From Candidatus Curtissbacteria bacterium RIFOXYA1_FULL_41_14 (GTDB lineage: Bacteria > Patescibacteriota > Microgenomatia > Curtissbacterales > GWA2-41-24), in NCBI GenBank assembly GCA_001775095.1, contig MFCA01000002.1:1-55702 (forward strand): a DNA stretch of 55,702 bases, read 5' to 3'. Each line of letters starts with the position of its first letter. Positions within the stretch are counted from its first letter, which is position 1. Shown piece by piece: positions 4,709 to 52,991 of this stretch. Under the pieces are notes generated by a model that saw nothing but the letters and a program-made list of their open reading frames with translations, had not been told where the DNA came from and searched no databases. Both the position numbers and the translations under genes were made by a program.

Positions 4709-4903
4709 ATGAAACAAAAAACCAAAAAGGCGGCAGCCAAAAGATTTAAAATTACGCCAAAAGGAAAAATTTTAAGAGGACGCCAAATGGCAGGCCATCT
4801 TAAGATGGCGAAAACAAAAAGTGCCAAAACACGGTATAAGAGGAAGGCCTTTGTCTCTAAACCTGAGAAGAGAAGGATAGAAAGGCTAATGCCGTATAAT
4901 TAA
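4709..4903 (+). CDS. rpmI: Ribosomal protein L35
   Basis: 64-aa basic protein ...AAAKRFKITPKGKILRGRQMAGHL... with the usual position after infC. Confidence 0.93.
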   Translation: MKQKTKKAAAKRFKITPKGKILRGRQMAGHLKMAKTKSAKTRYKRKAFVSKPEKRRIERLMPYN

Positions 4904-4905
4904 AA

Positions 4906-5130
4906 ATCCTAAACTCTAAATTCTAAATCCTAAATAAATCCAAATGAGGTAAAATACAAAATTCAAAACAGGAGGATAACTATATTGTTCGAGCCCTTCG
5001 TCGAAACTCAGGGCGAGAACTAAAACTTCTCACTTTGTTCGAAGACTAAAAGGGTTTTAACTGACTATCTTTCTTTTGAACATTTGAATTTTGAAATTGT
5101 TTAGAGTTTAGAATTTAGAATTTAGAATTT
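4906..5130. repeat. Composite nested palindrome: heptamer-type arms flanking a GC-richer core hairpin
   Basis: Left arm atcctaaactctaaattctaaatcc...caaaattcaaaaca. Right arm ttttgaacatttgaattttgaaattgtttagagtttagaatttagaatttagaattt. Core ttgttcgagccc...gggcgagaac recurs at 37925-38010 and 52862-52963. Confidence 0.8.
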
Positions 5131-5138
5131 CTTAAACA

Positions 5139-5624: not shown

Positions 5625-6647
5625 ATGGACAAAGAATTAAAAGAATTATTGACCCATGCCCGCGCAAGAATCGGCTCTGTCAATACCACCAAAGATCTCG
5701 ATCAGGTCTACATTGAAATCTTTGGCAAAAGCGGCGAGTTCACAACTCTTACCAAACAACTTGGACAAGTTCCTAAATCAAAAAGACCAAAAATCGGTCA
5801 GCTTCTCAATGAAGCAAAAAAGGAAATAGAGCAACATCTTGAAAAAAAGCGTTCAGCGTTAAGCGCTGGGCGTTCAGCAACTCCTATTGATATTACAGCC
5901 CCCGGCGAAAAGACCAAAATCGGCCACCTTCATCTCGTTTCCCAGGCAATCGAAGAAATCGTCTCCATTTTTAAACAGCTTGGGTTCTCACTTCAAAGTT
6001 ACCCGGAAGTCGAATGGGACTGGTATGCCTTTGAAACTTTAAATATGCCCAAGAACCATCCTGCCAGAGACGATTGGGAAACATTTTTTATAAAATCCAA
6101 ACCTCATCCTAATTTAGGAAATCAAGTATTGACCCCGCACACCTCAAACGGCCAGGTTAGAGAAATGCTAAGAGTCAAAACACCTCCAATTAGAATGCTC
6201 AACATTGCCCGTTGCTACCGAAGACAAATTGATATTTCACATACGCCAATGTTTCATCAATTTGAAGGCCTTTTGGTTGACAAAAATGTTTCGATTCCGG
6301 ATCTTAAGGGTACTTTTGATTATTTCACCACCAGATTCTTTGGTCCCGAACGAGTTACCAGATTAAGACAACATCATTTCCGTTTCACCGAACCATCATT
6401 TGAAGTTGACGTCACTTGTGGGGTTTGTATGGGACGTGGCTGCCGATTCTGCAAATCCGGCTGGGTGGAACTTGGAGGATCCGGTATGGTGCATCCGAGA
6501 GTCCTAAGAGCAGGCAAAATCGACCCTGAAGTCTATAGCGGTTTTGCTTTTGGCTGGGGAATCGAAAGAACAATTGCTATGAAAACCAACATAGGCGACA
6601 TCAGACTTTTGTACCAAAATGATATTAGGTTCTTAGAACAGTTCTGA
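5625..6647 (+). CDS. pheS: Phenylalanyl-tRNA synthetase alpha subunit
   Basis: HPARD..(D)TFF, class II motifs FRFTEPS.E.D, GFAFG.G.ER. pheT follows. Confidence 0.95.
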   Translation: MDKELKELLTHARARIGSVNTTKDLDQVYIEIFGKSGEFTTLTKQLGQVPKSKRPKIGQLLNEAKKEIEQHLEKKRSALSAGRSATPIDITAPGEKTKIGHLHLVSQAIEEIVSIFKQLGFSLQSYPEVEWDWYAFETLNMPKNHPARDDWETFFIKSKPHPNLGNQVLTPHTSNGQVREMLRVKTPPIRMLNIARCYRRQIDISHTPMFHQFEGLLVDKNVSIPDLKGTFDYFTTRFFGPERVTRLRQHHFRFTEPSFEVDVTCGVCMGRGCRFCKSGWVELGGSGMVHPRVLRAGKIDPEVYSGFAFGWGIERTIAMKTNIGDIRLLYQNDIRFLEQF

Positions 6648-6650
6648 GAT

Positions 6651-6784
6651 GAAAATTCGAAATACGAAGCACGAAATTCGAAACAAATTCCAATTTTCAA
6701 AATACAAATGTTCAAGACGTTTTGAATTTAGGTCATTTGAATTTAAGTATTGTTTAGGATTTAGAATTTAGGATTTCGGATTTA
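6651..6784. repeat. Long imperfect palindrome (aaattcgaaa-type arms, centre acgtttt); same family as the carB insertions
   Basis: gaaaattcgaaatacgaagcacgaaattcgaaacaa...caagacgttttgaatttaggtcatttgaattta...ggatttagaatttaggatttcggattt. The 5' half is near-identical to 47299-47390. Confidence 0.85.
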
Positions 6785-6791
6785 AAATATT

Positions 6792-16283: not shown

Positions 16284-16346
16284 ATATATCAGCAGATCGC
16301 CTTGGCACAATTCTTCAAATTCGTGCCAATGGCGCTCCTCTGATAT
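16284..16346. repeat. Family A palindromic element (MITE/REP-like), inverted orientation
   Basis: atatatcagcagatcgccttggcac-aattcttcaaattc-gtgccaatggcgctcctctgatat. Confidence 0.85.
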
Positions 16347-22079: not shown

Positions 22080-22143
22080 TATATCAGAGGAGCGCCCTGA
22101 GTCCTGAGCTTGTCGAAGGATCGAAGGGCGACCTGCTGATTTA
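22080..22143. repeat. Family A palindromic element with a GC-rich centre
   Basis: tatatcagaggagcgccctgagtcctgagcttgtcgaaggatcgaagggcgacctgctgattta. Its left end reads TGaTATAAA on the minus strand, facing pilM. Confidence 0.8.
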
Positions 22144-22189
22144 AACGACCTACCAATATCAAGACCAAAGACTTGGGCAGACATAATAT

Positions 22190-23371: not shown

Positions 23372-23983
23372 TTAATATTGCCTTAGCGAAATCGTCGTCT
23401 CAAACTTGACATTTGCCAAAAAATCCGCGCGTGAAGGAGCATCAATTCCTTGATTGACCATAAAGCTTATGGAAACAATAGGAGGCGACCCGGAGGCCGT
23501 AGGAATTATTTTAAATCCTAAAGGGGGAGTACACGTAATATCTACTCCCGAAATAGTATCTCTACTTGTAATTGATTCATAGTCACCCGTATTAATATCT
23601 GTTCCGGGAGAGACATCTGCTACACCAATCCACCCATTGCTGGAAGGCGACGCAATACTATTGAAACATGCTATATAGAGTGAGTTTCCATCTGTCTTAG
23701 TTATATTAACCCCGCTTGATGAACCATTTGGTGTAATTTCAACAGCTGCGGTTGCACCTCGAATTTGTTTCTCCAGCAAATCCAGAACTGCCTGGCCGTT
23801 TTGCTTAACCTCTGCAGTCACATTAGCCTGATTTGTACCTTTTAAAACATTGGTTAAGAATAAAAGAGTAGCTCCTACGGCCGTAACCAGTATGCCCAAA
23901 ACAACCAGCAGCTCGATCAGGGTGAAACCATCCGAAAATTGAAAATTGAAAATTGAAAATTGAAAATTTTTGCGGAAGGGCAT
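23372..23983 (-). CDS. Minor pilin (prepilin-type N-terminal cleavage/methylation domain; PilW/PulJ-like)
   Basis: ...DG|FTLIELLVVLGIL class III signal. The 19-aa leader MPFRKNFQFSIFNFQFSDG is encoded by a heptamer array. Confidence 0.8.
   Translation of the reverse strand: MPFRKNFQFSIFNFQFSDGFTLIELLVVLGILVTAVGATLLFLTNVLKGTNQANVTAEVKQNGQAVLDLLEKQIRGATAAVEITPNGSSSGVNITKTDGNSLYIACFNSIASPSSNGWIGVADVSPGTDINTGDYESITSRDTISGVDITCTPPLGFKIIPTASGSPPIVSISFMVNQGIDAPSRADFLANVKFETTISLRQY
23934..23968. repeat. Heptanucleotide array (gaaaatt x5) inside the minor-pilin leader coding region
   Basis: Five perfect units between the only in-frame ATG and the G|FTLIE site. Confidence 0.95.
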
Positions 23984-24082: not shown

Positions 24083-24589
24083 TTAATCATTGCTGGAAAG
24101 AATAGTCTGATTAATGACCGATTGGGTACCTCCAGAATCAGTCCATGAGACAGTAACTGTAACCTTTTTCTGATCGGAATTCGCTCCAATCTCGATCTTT
24201 AAAGATCGATCAAAAACAACTTGATTTAAAAGTACCGACTCGGGACAGTCAACAGAAGGATCTGATGAATTATTTGCCAGTTTCCAATTATTTGGATTAA
24301 TATCGGCAGTATTAGCAAGCACCCAGCAGTCGTTATTTGCCAAACTAGCAAAACCCTGCCTGTCGCGCAAAATTCTAACTTGCTCAATATTTTGCTGAAC
24401 CAATTTTGTAGCCTGGGAAGTATTTTTAGCGGTCCTTGATGCTCTTTGGACAACCAAAGTCGTAGTTACCAAAGCCACTGCCAAACCGACAATCACAGCC
24501 ATGGCGATAACAACCTCAATAAGCGACTGCGCTGACTTACTGACAACTGACAACGGACAACTGACAACTGACTTATGGCTTGCTTTCAT
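24083..24589 (-). CDS. Minor pilin (PilV-like)
   Basis: ...KSA|QSLIEVVIAMAVIVGLAV has Glu at +5. The ATG at 24589 overlaps the upstream gene end. Confidence 0.7.
   Translation of the reverse strand: MKASHKSVVSCPLSVVSKSAQSLIEVVIAMAVIVGLAVALVTTTLVVQRASRTAKNTSQATKLVQQNIEQVRILRDRQGFASLANNDCWVLANTADINPNNWKLANNSSDPSVDCPESVLLNQVVFDRSLKIEIGANSDQKKVTVTVSWTDSGGTQSVINQTILSSND
24533..24575. repeat. Heptanucleotide array (tgacaac-type, 6 units) in the minor-pilin leader coding region
   Basis: tgactta c tgacaac tgacaac ggacaac tgacaac tgactta, translated as HKSVVSCPLSVVSKS. Confidence 0.9.
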
Positions 24590-25346
24590 CCACTTCCCCT
24601 GAAGTCTGAATCTTAACATTATAGGTTTTAGAGGAATCAGATACTAAAATCAAACTTATCGTTAACTGACTTTGCGGAGTAAGTAAATTTTTTAGATTAT
24701 CACTAGTATCGATAAATGGGGGAGCCACATCGTTGTGGAAACTAACACCTGCTGCCACAGACCGATAGAAAATAGTCACGTCATTAACGGAAGAACTAAG
24801 TATACTAATTCCTCCTATCTTCACGTCTCTTGGTAGATTTACCGTTTTTGAGCCAACTGTGTAACTCTCTGTTCTACTAGGATCGTCCTGACAATAACCG
24901 GCCAACAAATATGATTGGGCATCTTGGCTAATTTTAATAAACCACCCGTCAAGAATTAGGTCATCTCTTTCAGGATTACTCTCACATTTACCGCCCGTGC
25001 CCTTATCACCGGATACTGCCTTGTTTTGAATTAAGCGAATGTCGCCTTTTAGCATTTGCGCGGCACTTTTGAGCCGCTGGTTACGTTCAAAAGACAGATA
25101 AGACGCGGTTATGGCTGAAACCGCAATACCAAAAACCGTAATCACAATCATAAACTCAATTAACCCAAAACCATGACGCCTACGGCGCCAGTTGATAGTT
25201 GACCCTTCGATGTACTCAGGGTCACCTCTTCGAGCCTGAGCCTCAGAGCCGAAGGCCTGAGCTTGCCGAATGGGTGATAGTTCATAGTTGACAGTTTTCT
25301 TATTTACGCAGACCGTGAACCGAGAACCATGAACCGTGAACCTCAT
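24573..25346 (-). CDS. Minor pilin (GspH/FimT-like); start uncertain
   Basis: RRRRHG|FGLIEFMIVITVFGIAVSAI...NQRLKSAAQML. The annotated 60-aa leader is made entirely of repeat sequence. Confidence 0.7.
   Translation of the reverse strand: MRFTVHGSRFTVCVNKKTVNYELSPIRQAQAFGSEAQARRGDPEYIEGSTINWRRRRHGFGLIEFMIVITVFGIAVSAITASYLSFERNQRLKSAAQMLKGDIRLIQNKAVSGDKGTGGKCESNPERDDLILDGWFIKISQDAQSYLLAGYCQDDPSRTESYTVGSKTVNLPRDVKIGGISILSSSVNDVTIFYRSVAAGVSFHNDVAPPFIDTSDNLKNLLTPQSQLTISLILVSDSSKTYNVKIQTSGEVDESKP
25191..25341. repeat. Composite element: GC-rich core (25201-25275) within gatagtt-type heptamers, plus an inverted cgtgaac array
   Basis: gttgatagtt-[gacccttcga...ctcagggtc...cctgagcctcagagccgaaggcctgagc...]-gatagttcatagttgacagtt ... 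cgtgaac cgagaac catgaac cgtgaac. Confidence 0.8.
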
Positions 25347-26131: not shown

Positions 26132-26662
26132 TTAAGGCTGACAATTACCACTGCCAACCTCGCCTATACTAACGCTTTCCGATCGCCAGCACCAAACCCA
26201 ATTCCCGCTGCCGGAAGTCGGGTCTTCAATTTCGCCATAAACTGCTGCTTCTGATGAAATACCCGAACCTGAAACCAAATACTGATACTCTGTTCCTATA
26301 GGATCAAGAGGTATTATTTTTAAATCTCCTGAAGCCCTTAGCGCTGTTAAACCGCTAACAGAAGCTGGGCCGGCCGGTGAGGGATAAGCGTCATAAGTTG
26401 TGTAATATGCCTTCAGGGCATTGGCAATTTGACCGATATCGTTTTTCCTGGCGGCATCCCGAGCTTGAGATTTACGTTTAACAGGGTTGATGGCAACCAT
26501 AATTGTTGCGGCCAGAACAGCCATAATAGCAATCACAATCAGAAGCTCGATCAGGGTAAAACCATGCCGCCATGAACGGCGGTTAACAGTTGTCGGTTCA
26601 TGGTTCACAGTCTTTTGAATTCTGTGAACTATTAACTGTAAACCGTTAACTAACTTGGGCAT
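26132..26662 (-). CDS. Type IV pilin paralogue 1 (start uncertain)
   Basis: RHG|[19 protein letters not shown]-terminus has the [16 protein letters not shown]...GSGNCQP disulfide loop shared by all three pilins. Confidence 0.85.
26582..26650. repeat. Hairpin with gttcac/gttaac heptamer-type arms in the pilin 5' region
   Basis: gttcacag-tcttttgaattc-ctgtgaac is an 8-bp perfect stem, flanked by gttaac-type repeats. Confidence 0.7.
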
Positions 26663-26702: not shown

Positions 26703-27239
26703 TTATGGAGTACAACTACCTGAAGTAATCTCTTGGACTTTGCCAATTGCCGATTGCCAACACCAAAGCCAATCACCATCACCCGAAGTCGGGTCTTCAA
26801 GCGTAGCATACAGCGCCGCTTCACTATTTGCGGGAGCGCCGCCAAGAGTCAAACAATAATCATCACCGGTAGGTCCGGTTGGTACTTCTTTTAAATCACC
26901 ACTTGTAGTTAGAGCAGTTAAGCCTCCGCTGGTCCCGCAGCCGTCCGGCGTAGGATAATAACCATTTCCGCGGCTGACATAATAAGCATCCAGAGCGTGG
27001 GCTAGGGTTCCGATATTAGTTTTTCGAGAAGAATCCCGTGCTTGCCTTTGTCTTTTGGCGGGATTAACCGCCACTAGAACTGCTGCGGCCAGAATACCTA
27101 GAATACCAATAACTACCAGAAGTTCGATCAGTGTAAAACCATGCCGCCAACGGCGGCAGTTCACGGTTTTGAGTTCACTGTTCACGGACTTTTGTTTTCT
27201 GTAAGCTATGAACTGTGAACTATGAACTAGATTGGGCAT
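26703..27239 (-). CDS. Type IV pilin paralogue 2 (start uncertain: ATG 27239 or GTG 27164)
   Basis: RHG|FTLIELLVVIGILGILAA. C-terminus EDPTSGDGDWLWCWQS...TSGSCTP. Confidence 0.85.
   Translation of the reverse strand: MPNLVHSSQFIAYRKQKSVNSELKTVNCRRWRHGFTLIELLVVIGILGILAAAVLVAVNPAKRQRQARDSSRKTNIGTLAHALDAYYVSRGNGYYPTPDGCGTSGGLTALTTSGDLKEVPTGPTGDDYCLTLGGAPANSEAALYATLEDPTSGDGDWLWCWQSAIGKVQEITSGSCTP
27159..27230. repeat. Hairpin whose arms are inverted heptamer arrays (agttcay / rtgaacn) in the pilin 5' region
   Basis: Minus strand reads agttcat agttcac agttcat agcttac agaaaac aaaagtc cgtgaac agtgaac tcaaaac cgtgaac. Confidence 0.8.
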
Positions 27240-27243
27240 TACT

Positions 27244-27303
27244 TCAATTGTCAATTGTCAATTGTCAATTGTCAATTGTCAGTAGTCAGCAGTCAGTAGT
27301 AGT
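27244..27303. repeat. Longest heptanucleotide array: tcaattg x5 then tcagtag/tcagcag x3
   Basis: Read directly, in the divergent gap between the pilin and the 27316 gene. Confidence 0.95.
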
Positions 27304-38793: not shown

Positions 38794-38836
38794 TAATATA
38801 ATGGCCGCTCATCTCAGAGACTTATCACTTTTCACT

Positions 38837-40845
<2,009 letters not shown>

Positions 40846-44237: not shown

Positions 44238-44312
44238 ATATCAGAGGAGCGCCATTGGCAGGACGAGTCGAGTCTGACTCGACGAAGTCTGCCAAGACGA
44301 CCTGCTGATATA
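44237..44312. repeat. Family A palindromic element (most complete copy)
   Basis: tatatcagaggagcgccattggcaggacgagtcgagtctgactcgacgaagtctgccaagacgacctgctgatata. The right end is TGaTATAAA, 6 nt before an ATG at 44321. Confidence 0.9.
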
Positions 44313-44343: not shown

Positions 44344-45558
44344 ATGCAAAATAAAAAAGCAAGATTAATTCTCGAAGACGGCACCATCTTTAAAGGTAAT
44401 GCAGCCGGCAGTCAGACCTCTTCAGCAGGCGAAGTAGTTTTTGCAACAGGCATGGTCGGTTATGATTTATCGCTTACCGACCCTTCTTACGCCGGCCAGA
44501 TATTAACCTTCACATACCCTTTAATCGGTAATTGGGGTGTACCGCCAAAAGAGTTTTGGGAATCGGATAAAATCCAAGTTGCTGGTCTTGTAGTCAGCGA
44601 CTTAACTACAAAACCCAGCCATTGGCAATCGCAACAAACTCTTGATGAATGGCTGAAAGAAGAAGGAGTCTCTGCAATTTTTGGTATAGATACAAGACTC
44701 TTGACCCAAAAATTACGAGATAGGGGAGTAATGCTGGGTAAAATTGTAGTTGAGGATCAGGATATCGAATTTTATGATCCGAATGCCGAAAATCTTGTCG
44801 CCAAAGTTTCGCCGAAAGAACCAAAAATCCTCAAATCCGAAATCCGAAATCCGAAATCCGAAATCCGGGTCGGCCTATTAAATTGTGGAGCGAAAAGAAA
44901 TATCCTGCGCAGTCTTCTTGCTCGAGGAGTAACCGTTTATGATCTCCCATGGAATTTCGATCCGTTCGTTTCGGACGGGTGGCAGTCGTGGAAAGGTTCC
45001 CGACAGCGCGGACCCCGCACTTTTACAAATTCTGATCAAAATCACAAATATCAAACCAACCTAAAAGTGCGGGGGAGCACTGACGGGAAGGAAACGACTG
45101 ACAGGACCCGTCCGGAATTCCCCAAACTTGACGGCCTGGTCATTTCCAATGGTCCGGGAGACCCTAAAATGGCCAAAGAGACCATCAATATTATCAAAAA
45201 AGCTTTAAAAAAGAAGATCCCAACATTCGGAATATGTCTTGGCAACCAGCTTCTGGCTTTAGCGACCGGGGGAGATACTTACAAATTAAAATTCGGCCAT
45301 CGGGCACAAAATCAACCGACTATTCAAGCCGGAACCAAACGCTGCTACATCACCACTCAAAATCATGGCTTTGCGGTCGACGAGAAAAAAATGCCAAAAG
45401 GCTTTAAGAGATGGTTTCATAATGCTAACGATAATACTAATGAGGGAATAATCCATGAGAATCTCTCATTTTTTTCCGTCCAATTCCATCCGGAAGCCAG
45501 TCCCGGGCCAACAGATACCGAATGGCTCTTTGATTACTTTTTGGAGAAATTTAAATGA
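44344..45558 (+). CDS. carA: Carbamoyl-phosphate synthase small (glutaminase) subunit, carrying two in-frame repeat insertions
   Basis: ARLILEDGTIFKG, GAKRNILR, SNGPGDP, GICLGNQLL, VQFHPEA. Confidence 0.95.
   Translation: MQNKKARLILEDGTIFKGNAAGSQTSSAGEVVFATGMVGYDLSLTDPSYAGQILTFTYPLIGNWGVPPKEFWESDKIQVAGLVVSDLTTKPSHWQSQQTLDEWLKEEGVSAIFGIDTRLLTQKLRDRGVMLGKIVVEDQDIEFYDPNAENLVAKVSPKEPKILKSEIRNPKSEIRVGLLNCGAKRNILRSLLARGVTVYDLPWNFDPFVSDGWQSWKGSRQRGPRTFTNSDQNHKYQTNLKVRGSTDGKETTDRTRPEFPKLDGLVISNGPGDPKMAKETINIIKKALKKKIPTFGICLGNQLLALATGGDTYKLKFGHRAQNQPTIQAGTKRCYITTQNHGFAVDEKKMPKGFKRWFHNANDNTNEGIIHENLSFFSVQFHPEASPGPTDTEWLFDYFLEKFK
44833..44867. repeat. Heptanucleotide array (aaatccg x5) in frame inside carA
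   Basis: Five perfect units plus a degenerate unit at 44825-32. Translated as LKSEIRNPKSEIR. Confidence 0.95.
44971..45116. repeat. GC-rich ~146-nt imperfect palindrome in frame inside carA
   Basis: The left arm tcggacgggtggcagtcgtggaaaggttcccgacagcgcggaccccgcacttttac pairs with the right arm ctaaaagtgcgggggagcactgacgggaaggaaacgactgacaggacccgtccgga. Confidence 0.9.
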
Positions 45559-48500
45559 GAAAAATCCTTCTTCTTGGATCCGGAGCTTTAAAAATCGGCC
45601 AAGCCGGCGAGTTTGATTATTCCGGATCGCAGGCAATTAAAGCTCTTAAGGAGGAAGAAATTAAGGTAATTTTAATTAACCCAAATATCGCCACAGTCCA
45701 AACATCCGAAGGCTTCGCAGACCAAGTCTATTTCTTACCTGTTGAAACACACTTCGTCAAAGAAATCATCAAGAAAGAAAGACCCGAAGGTATTATTCTT
45801 TCGTTTGGAGGACAAACCGCCTTAAATTGCGCTCTGGAACTTGCAAAATTAAGAATACTAGAAAAATATCGAGTTAAAGTTCTAGGGACCCAAATAGACA
45901 CAATTGAAAAAACCGAGGATAGGGAACTTTTCAATGAAACTTTGAGAAAAATTGGTCTGTCAATTCCAAAAAGTGTTGCGTGTAAAAGTTTAAGCCAGGC
46001 GGAAATTGCTATCGGCAAAATCGGTTATCCTGTTATCGCGCGATGCGGTTTTTCTTTAGGAGGTCAGGATTCACAAGTCATTTTCAATAATACTCAGCTG
46101 AAAGAAGCTGTCATCAGGGCTCTTTCCAAATCTCCACAAGTTCTAATTGAAGAATACTTAGAAGGCTGGAAAGAAGTGGAGTACGATGTAGTCAGAGACA
46201 AGTATGACAACTGTATTACTGTCTGCAACATGGAAAATGTCGATCCGATGGGTATTCACACCGGCGAATCAATCGTTGTCGCTCCTTCGCAAACTCTGAA
46301 TAATTTTGAATATCATAAGCTTCGGGAAATCGCCATCAAAGTGATCCGTCACCTAAAAATAGTCGGGGAGTGCAATATTCAGTTTGCTCTAAACCCCCGT
46401 CCGACAAACTCTAAATCCGAAATCCTAAATTCTAAACAATCTCAAAATCCAAATGACCTAAATTCAAAACGTTTTGAGCATTTGAATTTAGAAAATTCGG
46501 ATTTGTTTAGAAATTCGGATTTAGAAATTAGAAATTACCTCGATTATAGAATTATCGAGGTTAACGCTCGTCTTTCTCGAAGTTCTGCCCTGGCTTCGAA
46601 AGCAACCGGTTATCCATTGGCTTATATAGCAGCCAAATTGGCACTCGGATATTCGCTGACCGAACTTAAAAATACCGTTACAAAAAAAACCATAGCCTGC
46701 TTTGAACCTGCCCTCGATTATCTGGTTGTCAAAATTCCACGCTGGGATCTGGGTAAATTTCTAAAAAGCGAAACGCAAATCGGACCCTCTATGCAATCTG
46801 TGGGAGAAGTAATGGCAGTAGGACGCAAATTCGAAGAAGCAATTCAGAAAGCAATCCGCATGCTTGATATCGGACTCGAAGGTATTTTGGACAAACGCGC
46901 CCCAATCTCCAAGTATCAAAAACCCACCCCCTGGCGAATTTTCTCCGTGGCAAAAAGTCTGGCGGCCGGAGAGGCTGTCGACAAAATTTACAAGGCAACC
47001 GGCATCGACCCATTTTTTCTGGAAAAGATCAAAAACATAGTAGAGTTTGAAAAAAATATTAAAGCCTGTGATACTCGTGATACTCTTACTACCCGTGATA
47101 CTCTTCTTTTAGCCAAGCAACTTGGATTCTCTGATAAACGATTGGCAAAACTTACAAATTCAGCTGAGGAAAAGATTAGGAAACTGCGAAAAAAATATGG
47201 CATCTATCCGAAAGTCAAGCAAATTGACACTCTAGCTGCCGAATACCCGGCCCAGACGAATTACCTCTACCTTACATACAATGGAGAATCGGATGATATA
47301 AATTCGAAATCCAAAGCACGAAATTCGAAACAATATCAAATTTCAAATAACAAAAATTTTAAACGTTTTGAACATTTGAATTTAGAGAATTCGGATTCGT
47401 TTAGAAATTCGAAATACGAGAGCGTATTTTCGGAAAACCGAAAAGTGGAAATTAGAAATTCCCAAAACGATCGCAAGGTGATCGTTTTGGGATCTGGTCC
47501 TTACCGCATTGGGTCTTCCGTTGAATTTGACTGGTGCTCGGTAACATGCACCCAGACCGCTTCAAAAAATAACCTCTCCACAATAATTGTAAACTGCAAC
47601 CCGGAAACAGTCTCTACTGATTACGACATGGCCGACAGGCTTTATTTCGAAGAACTCTCTTTGGAAACTGTTCTGGAAATTTACGAAAGGGAGAAACCCT
47701 TTGGAATAATTCTCTCGATGGGTGGCCAAACTCCCAATAACCTGGCTACAAGTCTTTCTAAAAACGGAGTCAACATTCTGGGTACTAAATCAACTTCTAT
47801 CGATCAGGCAGAAGATCGAAATAAATTCTCAAACCTTTGCGATAAACTGTCAATAGACCAACCGGTCTGGGCTAAATTAAAAAATCTAAAAGAAGCTCTC
47901 ACTTTTGCCGAAAAAATCGGCTATCCGGTTCTAATCAGACCTTCCTACGTTCTTTCCGGAGCAGCTATGAACGTCGCATTCAGTTCTGAAGATCTCGCGA
48001 TATATCTTAAGTTAGCCTCCCGTATCTCTAAGGAATATCCTGTTGTGATCTCAAAATATTACGAGGAGGCTAAAGAGATCGAAATTGACGCAGTTGCGCA
48101 AGAAGGCCAGATTCTATGTTCTGCGATTTCCGAGCACGTTGAAAATGCCGGAGTCCACTCGGGAGACTCAACCATGGTTTTACCTGCTCAAAAACTCTAC
48201 CTCAAAACGGTTACTCAAATCGAAAATATCGCCCAAGAAATTGCCAAAAATTTAAAAATTACGGGCCCTTTTAACATCCAATTTTTGGCAAAAAATAATC
48301 ACGTCATGGTGATTGAATGCAATCTGCGCGCATCCCGAAGTTTTCCGTTTGTTTCCAAAGTAACCGGAGTCAACTTCATAGAGGTTGCAACAAATGCAAT
48401 CCTTAACATTAACCAAATACCAAATACTAAATACCAGATACTAGACTATGTCGGCGTCAAAGCTCCCCAGTTTTCTTTTTCCCGTATTAAAGGTGCTGAT

Positions 48501-52834: not shown

Positions 52835-52861
52835 TAAAATCTTAGTCCGCTGAAAACCTTG

Positions 52862-52963
52862 TTATTCTTCGAACAAAGTGAGAAGTCTGTAGTTCTCGCT
52901 ACGCTCGAACAATATGCAAAGCATGTTGTTCGAGCCCTGAGTTTTACCGAAGGGCTCGAACAA
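52862..52963. repeat. GC-richer core repeat: inverted copy of 4985-5046 plus a perfect 12-bp hairpin ttgttcgagccc/gggctcgaacaa
   Basis: tcttcgaacaaagtgagaagt is the reverse complement of 5025-5045. The hairpin is at 52926-37/52952-63. Confidence 0.85.
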
Positions 52964-52991
52964 TAGGGGTTTCCAGCAATCTCAGATCTAC

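Follow-up and report, generated by a model that had tools for sequence, protein, structure and literature searches.

The question raised by this locus is why the large subunit of carbamoyl-phosphate synthetase (CarB) of a Candidatus Curtissbacteria bacterium should contain, between its two synthetase halves, a segment of about 55 residues whose DNA resembles a palindromic repeat found between genes. An earlier note on this DNA had proposed that a mobile or replicating palindromic element colonised the essential gene without disrupting it, as Rickettsia palindromic elements (RPEs) do. We analyzed the whole stretch in which the gene lies (55,702 nucleotides, hereafter the window), which is housekeeping DNA of this member of the candidate phyla radiation (CPR, Microgenomates), together with related loci and proteins (L and P numbers, respectively, where they have to be told apart). 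The results suggest that the linker segment is probably a lineage-specific, in-frame copy of a non-autonomous, hairpin-forming repeat that is usually intergenic, and that it is translated as a tolerated disordered loop.

The carB gene lies directly downstream of carA, and its product was at least 99.5% identical to six independent records of 1154 aa from the same species-level cluster; three of these carry a source name, and all three are labelled as Curtissbacteria metagenome-assembled genomes (MAGs). The cluster was assembled from the Rifle aquifer. The protein has the full set of Pfam domains, and in a phmmer search against PDB it gave 1141 bits to human CPS1 and 821 bits to Escherichia coli CarB, being thus closer to the human mitochondrial enzyme. 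The alignment with CPS1 fell into three blocks with breaks at query residues 282/329 and 584/638, indicating two clean insertions in CarB, one in the first ATP-grasp domain (site 1) and another in the linker between the halves (site 2). The match to E. coli CarB resumed at its residue 554, corresponding to query residue 634, and the insertion, located between the synthetase halves as the earlier note had stated, has no counterpart in the E. coli enzyme; the in-frame, stop-free peptide that it quoted also matched our translation exactly. Baseline relatives have about 8 residues at site 2. When orthologues were aligned, as that note had advised, neither human CPS1 nor E. coli CarB had the insert, and it was also missing from the majority of 120 relatives, including a CarB group at 55-58% identity, and distant orthologues therefore give no sign of the conserved peptide that would mark a true domain. 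Since the insert is fixed and identical in the six records of its own species cluster and is missing from the nearest other lineages, it is lineage-specific. In some GW2011 assemblies of the same cluster (P0144-P0150), carB is split into open reading frames (ORFs) of about 400 and 740 aa near aa 367-440, at neither repeat insert, and this is probably a frameshift or an assembly error.

Next, the DNA of the segment was compared with other repeats. The family to which it was assigned has a defined layout, i.e., (AAATYCG)3-5, AAACAA, a variable stretch, the core TTCAAAACGTTTTGAA, and then the inverted arm, and the window holds four copies, two of them intergenic (A and B) and two inside carB (C at site 1 and D at site 2). 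The hidden Markov model (HMM) that detects copy D was built from other copies. Copy D is 83-84% identical to copy C, and the order of units in its left arm, including an odd GCAC unit, is that found at 6652-6688 and in copies from other phyla. The core motif occurs three times in the window at up to two mismatches and five times at up to three, against 1.4 expected, and none of the shuffles reached five. The earlier note had described the pheS-pheT spacer as matching almost base for base; this held for the left arm (34/39), but the ungapped identity of 6648-6715 was just 76% over 68 nt. Most copies folded as long hairpins, with z-scores of -3 to -5.7 against shuffles; copy C (z = -5.67 as DNA) is better preserved than copy D, which is the most degraded of all (whole-element z = -1.65). 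The imperfect palindrome of about 160 nt reported before was hence recovered in part: the family HMM matches 47294-47424, but the copy is eroded and 47412-47444 falls outside the consensus. The regional fold signal around copy D (z = -4.6) stems mainly from a hairpin at the insertion junction, and self-complementarity measured against mononucleotide shuffles was uninformative for this AT-rich sequence. The self-complementarity of copy D was barely above shuffles.

These data bear on whether the segment could have arisen in place, with arrays made by slippage and a palindrome made by template switching within the linker, its likeness to the other copies being a convergence of AT-rich low-complexity DNA. 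The window does contain more than 35 period-7 tandem arrays (TRF), mostly at gene boundaries and with many units (AATTTTC, TTGTCAA, ACTTATA, ACTGACA, ACCGTGA, and others). The junction hairpin clearly represents native codons duplicated locally in inverted orientation, and the weak self-complementarity of copy D would also fit such an origin. Chance convergence, however, is at odds with the HMM E-value of copy D (6e-29), with a core of 16-23 nt, an AAACAA junction and a GCAC unit common to copies in other phyla, with 94.7% identity between copies at different sites, and with a conservation of third codon positions far above that of the host gene. We regard an origin in place as largely refuted already, and it retains hardly any probability.

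The earlier note would have abandoned its reading if no other copies existed outside this DNA; members were found at 26 genome loci, in phage contigs, and in carB of relatives. The 26 loci were retrieved from species-representative genomes with the exact 23-nt core pattern, and their labels are Planctomycetota, Desulfobacterales, other Deltaproteobacteria, Chloroflexota, Gammaproteobacteria, Stahlbacteria, and five CPR classes, with Roizman-, Davies-, Shapiro-, and Peregrinibacteria among them; in total, the MAGs with family copies bear labels of at least seven phylum-level groups. All 26 loci share the family arms, down to the GCAC unit, and these arms were not imposed by the search. A search of 1.3 Mb of related DNA gave 49 non-redundant family matches, and half-elements, composed of the core and one arm, exist as well. 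In IMG/VR, an arm-plus-junction pattern retrieved family copies, often with extra hairpins nested at the palindrome centre, from contigs with genes for terminase, portal, major head, and tape-measure proteins. The exact core pattern had no match in IMG/VR, and BLASTN with a well-formed copy found none among GenBank phages and PLSDB plasmids. Two tailed-phage contigs with family members, L115 (640-798) and L128 (6415-6571), carry tape measure, terminase, portal, and major head genes, and the first also encodes, a few kb from the family copy, a reverse transcriptase-HNH protein that is group II intron-like. The family is not special to Curtissbacteria-type organisms and spans many phyla. In the unbiased genome sample, only 1/26 copies was intragenic, and this was in a CPR genome, so that intragenic use of the family appears to be enriched in CPR. 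The suggestion that the phenomenon is new for this kind of organism can be kept in this narrower form: among the open-access papers searched, no description of it for CPR was found, none with a mention of CPR cites the RPE literature, and none prints these element sequences, but the family itself is widespread.

The genic copies differ from the intergenic ones in what they encode. Just one reading frame passes the core without TGA, and genic copies were open in that frame in 10/10 cases versus 2/26 of the intergenic ones, the other 24 having stops. The right-arm peptide is F/I/C/W-rich in intergenic copies (grand average of hydropathy, GRAVY, +0.69) and E/R/N/S-rich in genic copies (GRAVY -0.94), a difference with a Mann-Whitney p = 8e-6 when shared ancestry is left uncorrected. 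By exhaustive peptide search of representatives and locus analysis, the element was found in frame in CarA, LepA, a class-V aminotransferase (NifS/IscS-like; labelled Wolfebacteria), a MiaB-like radical-SAM enzyme (cluster members labelled Patescibacteria), an FNR-like oxidoreductase, and a beta-propeller protein. In lepA (EF4) of a Patescibacteria MAG (L009 246-388), it lies between RGITI (G2) and DTPGH (G3). Peptide search of an index of 5.8 billion proteins returned four candidates, none of them significant. The presence of the same element in frame in unrelated proteins is the hallmark of RPEs, and it supports the earlier proposal that an essential gene was colonised without being disrupted. 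At one site of carA, the window has a solo heptamer array and a relative has the full element, indicating that array and full element alternate at one locus.

A strongly structured nucleic acid within an essential gene might also be lost on the way to the mature protein, whether as an intron, as an intein, or through translational bypass, and mobile palindromic inserts bypassed by ribosomes are known in yeast mitochondria. No Rfam family, introns included, matched the segment, an intein would have to be longer than about 55 aa, and the Pfam list of CarB includes no intein domain. Moreover, all genic copies are open in frame and shifted to hydrophilic codons, which would be needless if they were excised, and removal is the explanation to which we give the least credence.

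The opposite possibility is that the segment is kept as protein, i.e., as a functional linker or interaction loop of CPR CarB, and is not selfish DNA. Its fixation and identity in the six records of the species cluster, its hydrophilic and always in-frame character, and the frequency of related inserts at the same two loops would agree with this. In the AlphaFold2 model (62 homologues; predicted template modelling score 0.84), however, both carB inserts (aa 286-326 and 585-638) had a predicted local distance difference test (pLDDT) score <50, each flanked by confident strands, and they are predicted to be disordered loops. The linker insert is, besides, missing from distant orthologues, unrelated sequences replace it in CarBs about 95% identical in the core, the same sequence between genes has stops in this frame, and its conservation is at the nucleotide level, with third positions conserved to the same degree as first and second ones. 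A selected protein segment is thus very improbable.

This nucleotide-level conservation was quantified. At third codon positions, identity in the element was 72-90% between the other genic copies and, where copy D was involved, 67-82%, whereas in the carB core it was 44-48% for most of the same lineage pairs, indicating that the element is younger, or more constrained as DNA, than its host gene. Occupancy of the loops also changes quickly. The 120 CarB homologues range from 1058 to 1184 aa, and the same two loops house at least six unrelated peptide families, each translating a different repeat type. The occupant of site 2 differs between CarBs about 95% identical in the core (P0004 versus P0011; P0019 versus P0036 and P0051), and the L028 copy at site 2 shares 94.7% identity with the L029 copy at site 1, against 80.7% for the gene cores. 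Turnover was judged from such pairwise core identities, the neighbour-joining tree of CarB being too star-like for counting gains and losses. At site 1, copy C has orthologous copies in several relatives, and other relatives have unrelated insert families in the same loop.

At the 3' junction of the linker insert, the earlier note had seen a 12-bp inverted copy of native codons and taken it for the 3' end of the element; the inverted copy is real and reaches 13 bp, but it belongs to a separate, older hairpin. Positions 47460-47472 form a perfect 13-bp stem with 47480-47492 (15 bp if one G-T is allowed), and the density of perfect stems of 13 bp or more in the 1.3 Mb of related DNA is 0.022 per kb. 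Of the eight carB DNAs in the first comparison, seven have the hairpin, as does an additional distinct locus (L049). In two loci with the hairpin, L029 and L031, a short heptamer tract is all there is and the core is missing, which argues that the hairpin is older than, and separate from, the element. Its insert-side arm follows synonymous or conservative differences in the native arm, with double changes at three pairs; the covariation score was reached by 0/500 shuffles, slid controls showed no covariation except at offset -3 (two weakly covarying pairs), and loci without the motif have stems of 7 bp at most at the junction. The 3' junction is likewise bordered by perfect stems of 8-11 bp at carB site 1 and by an 18-nt perfect palindrome of native codons, immediately 3' of the element, in lepA, and this association is suggestive. 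Template-switch (quasipalindrome) mutations in replication are known to create such hairpins and to maintain or perfect them (PMC8794818, PMC5453318, PMC7202029). This process accounts for both the perfect inverted copying of neighbouring native sequence and 'compensatory' changes in a single step, as in 47460-47492, but it is a mutational mechanism and not an element family, and it leaves the core and arms shared across genomes unexplained. On the antisense strand, the 13-bp stem and the T-rich heptamer array score as an intrinsic terminator, which could stop antisense transcription through carB.

Taken in order, the scenario that we favour for the in-frame repeat would run as follows. A family with arms of tandem AAATYCG heptamers inverted around a short palindromic core normally occupies intergenic spacers, and its carB linker copy would be transcribed and translated with the gene to give a hydrophilic, disordered surface loop of about 55 residues that the enzyme tolerates. 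Genic copies would survive only where the single stop-free frame, a suitable length, and a permissive loop come together. Once a copy is inserted, its right arm would drift from F/I/C-rich to E/R/N/S-rich codons, which would degrade the palindrome too. New copies may arrive by copy-and-paste into pre-existing heptamer arrays beside hairpins, through homology or template switching in replication or repair and not by cut-and-paste transposition, and the same loops would as a consequence be reused and their occupants exchanged. We propose such copying because of solo heptamer arrays at orthologous sites (carB site 2 of L029 and L031; carA of the window compared with L038), arms that are mosaic with respect to one another, second elements nested exactly at palindrome centres, half-elements, the covarying junction hairpin, and the lack of duplications or a transposase. 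A broader version, in which a phage-carried, transposase-free family spreads across phyla by template switching in replication or repair at hairpins and arrays and uses the CPR arrays as landing pads in permissive loops of essential proteins (CarA, CarB, LepA, IscS-like and MiaB-like proteins, prepilin leaders), is tentative and in our judgement more doubtful than not; if true, selfish DNA would write and overwrite loops much faster than proteins evolve, a distinct mode of protein-loop evolution.

The main competitor regarding mobility is a classical MITE (miniature transposable element with inverted repeats), whose multi-site terminal repeats would be the heptamer arms and which would be mobilised in trans by a transposase encoded elsewhere or on a phage. 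The arms are inverted, the half-elements look like single transposon ends, the strong conservation of nucleotides across phyla suggests recognition by a protein, and copies are present in phage contigs. On the other hand, the flanks of 33 full-length copies showed no consistent direct repeat that could be a target-site duplication, the ends being fuzzy, variable in length, and fading into A5/T5 or arrays; the arms vary in the number and sequence of units, which makes their likeness to defined terminal inverted repeats doubtful. No transposase, RAYT, or Y1 transposase gene was found in the 55.7-kb window, whose sole recombinase is a syntenic Xer-like gene, and none lay beside half-elements when the neighbouring genes were examined. 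A MITE mobilised by a transposase acting in trans seems unlikely. The claim of a mobile or replicating element accordingly has the support of distribution and conservation, but neither a mobilising enzyme nor an insertion footprint was found.

Several points weigh against the reading of the segment as a translated copy of a spreading repeat. The landing-pad and template-switch mechanism is hypothetical. No insertion event was caught between near-identical genomes, and mobility rests on distribution and conservation. The high conservation of third positions could come from a selected DNA or RNA function and not from recent arrival. Genic copies are not phylogenetically independent and represent perhaps 5-8 separate events, making the p-values optimistic; their translation is inferred, and the peptide search was able to detect only copies in the same frame. 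The labels across phyla rest on MAG bins, although one copy lies in a closed Desulfobacterales chromosome of 5.3 Mb and others in contigs of 200-890 kb.

How the element compares with described systems was then considered. In the part of PMC10969869 that summarises Ogata et al. (2000, 2002), RPEs are palindromes of about 100-150 bp, located between and within genes, inserted in frame, and without inactivation, into a large number of unrelated housekeeping genes, with a peptide predicted on the protein surface and no transposase known. The present family likewise is a multi-copy palindromic repeat of about 100-150 bp with intergenic and genic copies, in-frame insertion in several unrelated intact ORFs (CarB at two sites, CarA, LepA, and others), and an inserted peptide that the model places in a surface or loop position compatible with the fold. 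It differs in its hosts, which are free-living or epibiotic CPR and other phyla, not Rickettsiales, in arms made of tandem heptamers, in a range over many phyla and phages, and in the reuse of the same protein loops by several families with rapid turnover. The carB element thus belongs to the RPE-like protein-coding palindromic repeats as a functional class, with no membership by descent being claimed.

In architecture, it resembles the cyanobacterial STRR/SDR and the Geobacter heptanucleotide elements. Elhai and colleagues, whose 2008 study is cited in PMC3116915, are said to have described STRR heptamer arrays in cyanobacterial spacers, with small hairpin SDR elements embedded and nested in them and no known transposase; both are reportedly confined to a cyanobacterial subgroup, and a systematic in-frame use in essential enzymes is reportedly undescribed. 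Shared features are the tandem heptamer arrays and the small hairpin elements nested within arrays and palindrome centres, whereas our host is a Curtissbacterium, the unit is AAATYCG, and the elements are larger composite palindromes. The heptamer bias of the window as a whole also resembles that of STRR. The four-heptanucleotide-repeat elements of Geobacter metallireducens are short tandem arrays in many copies within and between genes, with a GC-rich unit (GGACCGG), restricted to a single genus and interpreted as regulatory (PMC2700814); they share the arrays within and between genes but lack the palindromic composite. Prokaryotic MITEs (ERIC, Coxiella QMITE1, Anabaena MITEs) are non-autonomous inverted repeats with occasional in-frame ORF fusions (PMC10969869, PMC5896051). 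Our element shares the non-autonomous inverted repeat and the in-frame genic copies, but the target-site duplications and cognate insertion sequence of MITEs were not found; as for the defined terminal inverted repeats of MITEs, its arms are inverted and built of variable numbers of variable heptamers. Two further candidates were discarded: REP/BIME/REPIN elements, which are G+C-rich, 20-40 nt long, and headed by GTAG or CGTC, with a RAYT, while the element is about 140 nt, AT-rich, and headless; and self-splicing introns or inteins, as Rfam at gathering thresholds over the window and at E up to 1 over four element-bearing loci gave only tRNA and chance miRNA-precursor matches.

Table 1. Position of the repeat copies, their parts, and their host genes in the window (strand left empty where not assigned).
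Feature	Position	Strand	Basis or remark
Copy A, intergenic, rpmI-rplT spacer	4901..5134		Split in the exact middle by a nested element of 104 nt (4970-5073)
Copy B, intergenic, occupying the whole pheS-pheT spacer	6645..6787		nhmmer E = 9e-32; pheS and pheT identified by Pfam
(AAATCCG)5 array, in frame in carA (KSEIRNPKSEIR)	44833..44867	+	carA of a relative (L038 3202-3359) has the full element at exactly the same site
carB, carbamoyl-phosphate synthetase large subunit, 1154 aa	45555..49019	+	ORF; otherwise intact host gene
Copy C, in frame, ATP-grasp loop of first carB half (site 1, aa 283-329)	46398..46542	+	nhmmer E = 8.6e-34
Copy D, family-homologous part of the linker insert (left heptamer arm, core, proximal right arm)	47294..47424	+	nhmmer E = 5.7e-29, model positions 8-138
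Whole in-frame linker insertion (site 2; aa 585-638, about aa 582-639), between oligomerisation domain and second synthetase half	47299..47472	+	CPS1 alignment break, pLDDT <50
Left arm of copy D: AAATTCG / AAATCCA / AAGCACG / AAATTCG, then AAACAA	47299..47336	+	Sequence
Palindromic core of copy D, TTTTAAACGTTTTGAA (family consensus TTCAAAACGTTTTGAA)	47357..47372	+	Core-motif search
Two overlapping mini-hairpins, AAATACG-AGAG-CGTATTT and TTTTCGG-AAAA-CCGAAAA	47412..47444	+	Interrupt the right arm of copy D; outside the family consensus
Junction hairpin	47460..47492	+	5' arm (codons SQND) is an inverted copy of native (V)IVLG codons
Predicted tryptic peptides across insert junctions			FEHLNLENSDSFR, NSKYESVFSENR, NSQNDR

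Other observations were made in the window, where Pfam also identified tRNA synthetases, IF3, L20, gyrase, RecG, RNase III, type IV pilus genes, and a Xer-like recombinase. The 104-nt element nested in copy A is an inverted relative of 52853-52974, upstream of the Xer-like gene; it contains GTTCGAGCCC...GGGCTCGAAC stems and is a separate repeat family. Sigma-70-like matches of 9/12 lie in the right arms of copies A and B, immediately upstream of rplT and pheT, but a promoter reading was rejected, as the counts were no higher than in shuffles. A second in-frame insertion in carA, 44968-45110 (about 46 aa; GSRQRGPR...GKETTDRTRPEF), is absent from a 70%-identical CarA and corresponds to a G+C-richer long hairpin (z = -4.85); its peptide family (GGKETTDRTR) occupies CarB site 2 in other lineages. 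A third variable carB loop contains an in-frame (ACCAAAT)4 array (48412-48441; NQIPNTKYQILDY), and about 10 relatives also have insertions there.

Four minus-strand type IV prepilin-like genes (23372-23983, 24573-25346, 26132-26662, and 26703-27254) have unusually long leaders before the G|FTLIEL cleavage motif. These leaders are translated heptamer arrays and small palindromes (...SVNSELKTVN), with the same peptide types found in CarB loops of relatives, and cleaved prepilin leaders look like another permissive home for repeats. An (AATTTTC)5 array at 498-534 lies within the N-terminal hydrophobic segment of ORF 451-1260 (ILIFQFSIFNFQFSI) and may encode part of a signal or transmembrane segment. 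Lastly, four copies (16285-16346, 22085-22145, 38830-38885, and 44238-44312) of ATATCAGAGGAGCGCC ... GGCGACCTGCTGATAT, an imperfect inverted-repeat motif whose inner hairpins vary, each lie just upstream of a gene start, that of carA included; they may act as promoter or 5'-UTR elements or form a further repeat family.

That palindromic repeats colonise essential genes in frame is textbook knowledge for Rickettsia only, and the CPR case adds a new lineage and a repeat family of many phyla and phages. Three of its features are undescribed for RPEs: a family common to distant phyla and phages, the reuse of the same loops by many repeat families with a turnover that outpaces protein divergence, and element DNA far better conserved than the synonymous sites of the host gene. 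Such inserts inflate or fragment CPR protein families, yield spurious low-complexity 'domains', and mislead alignments and phylogenies; at the same time, they flag permissive loops in enzymes, and the architecture of heptamer arrays and hairpins offers a testable handle on how transposase-free repeats spread.

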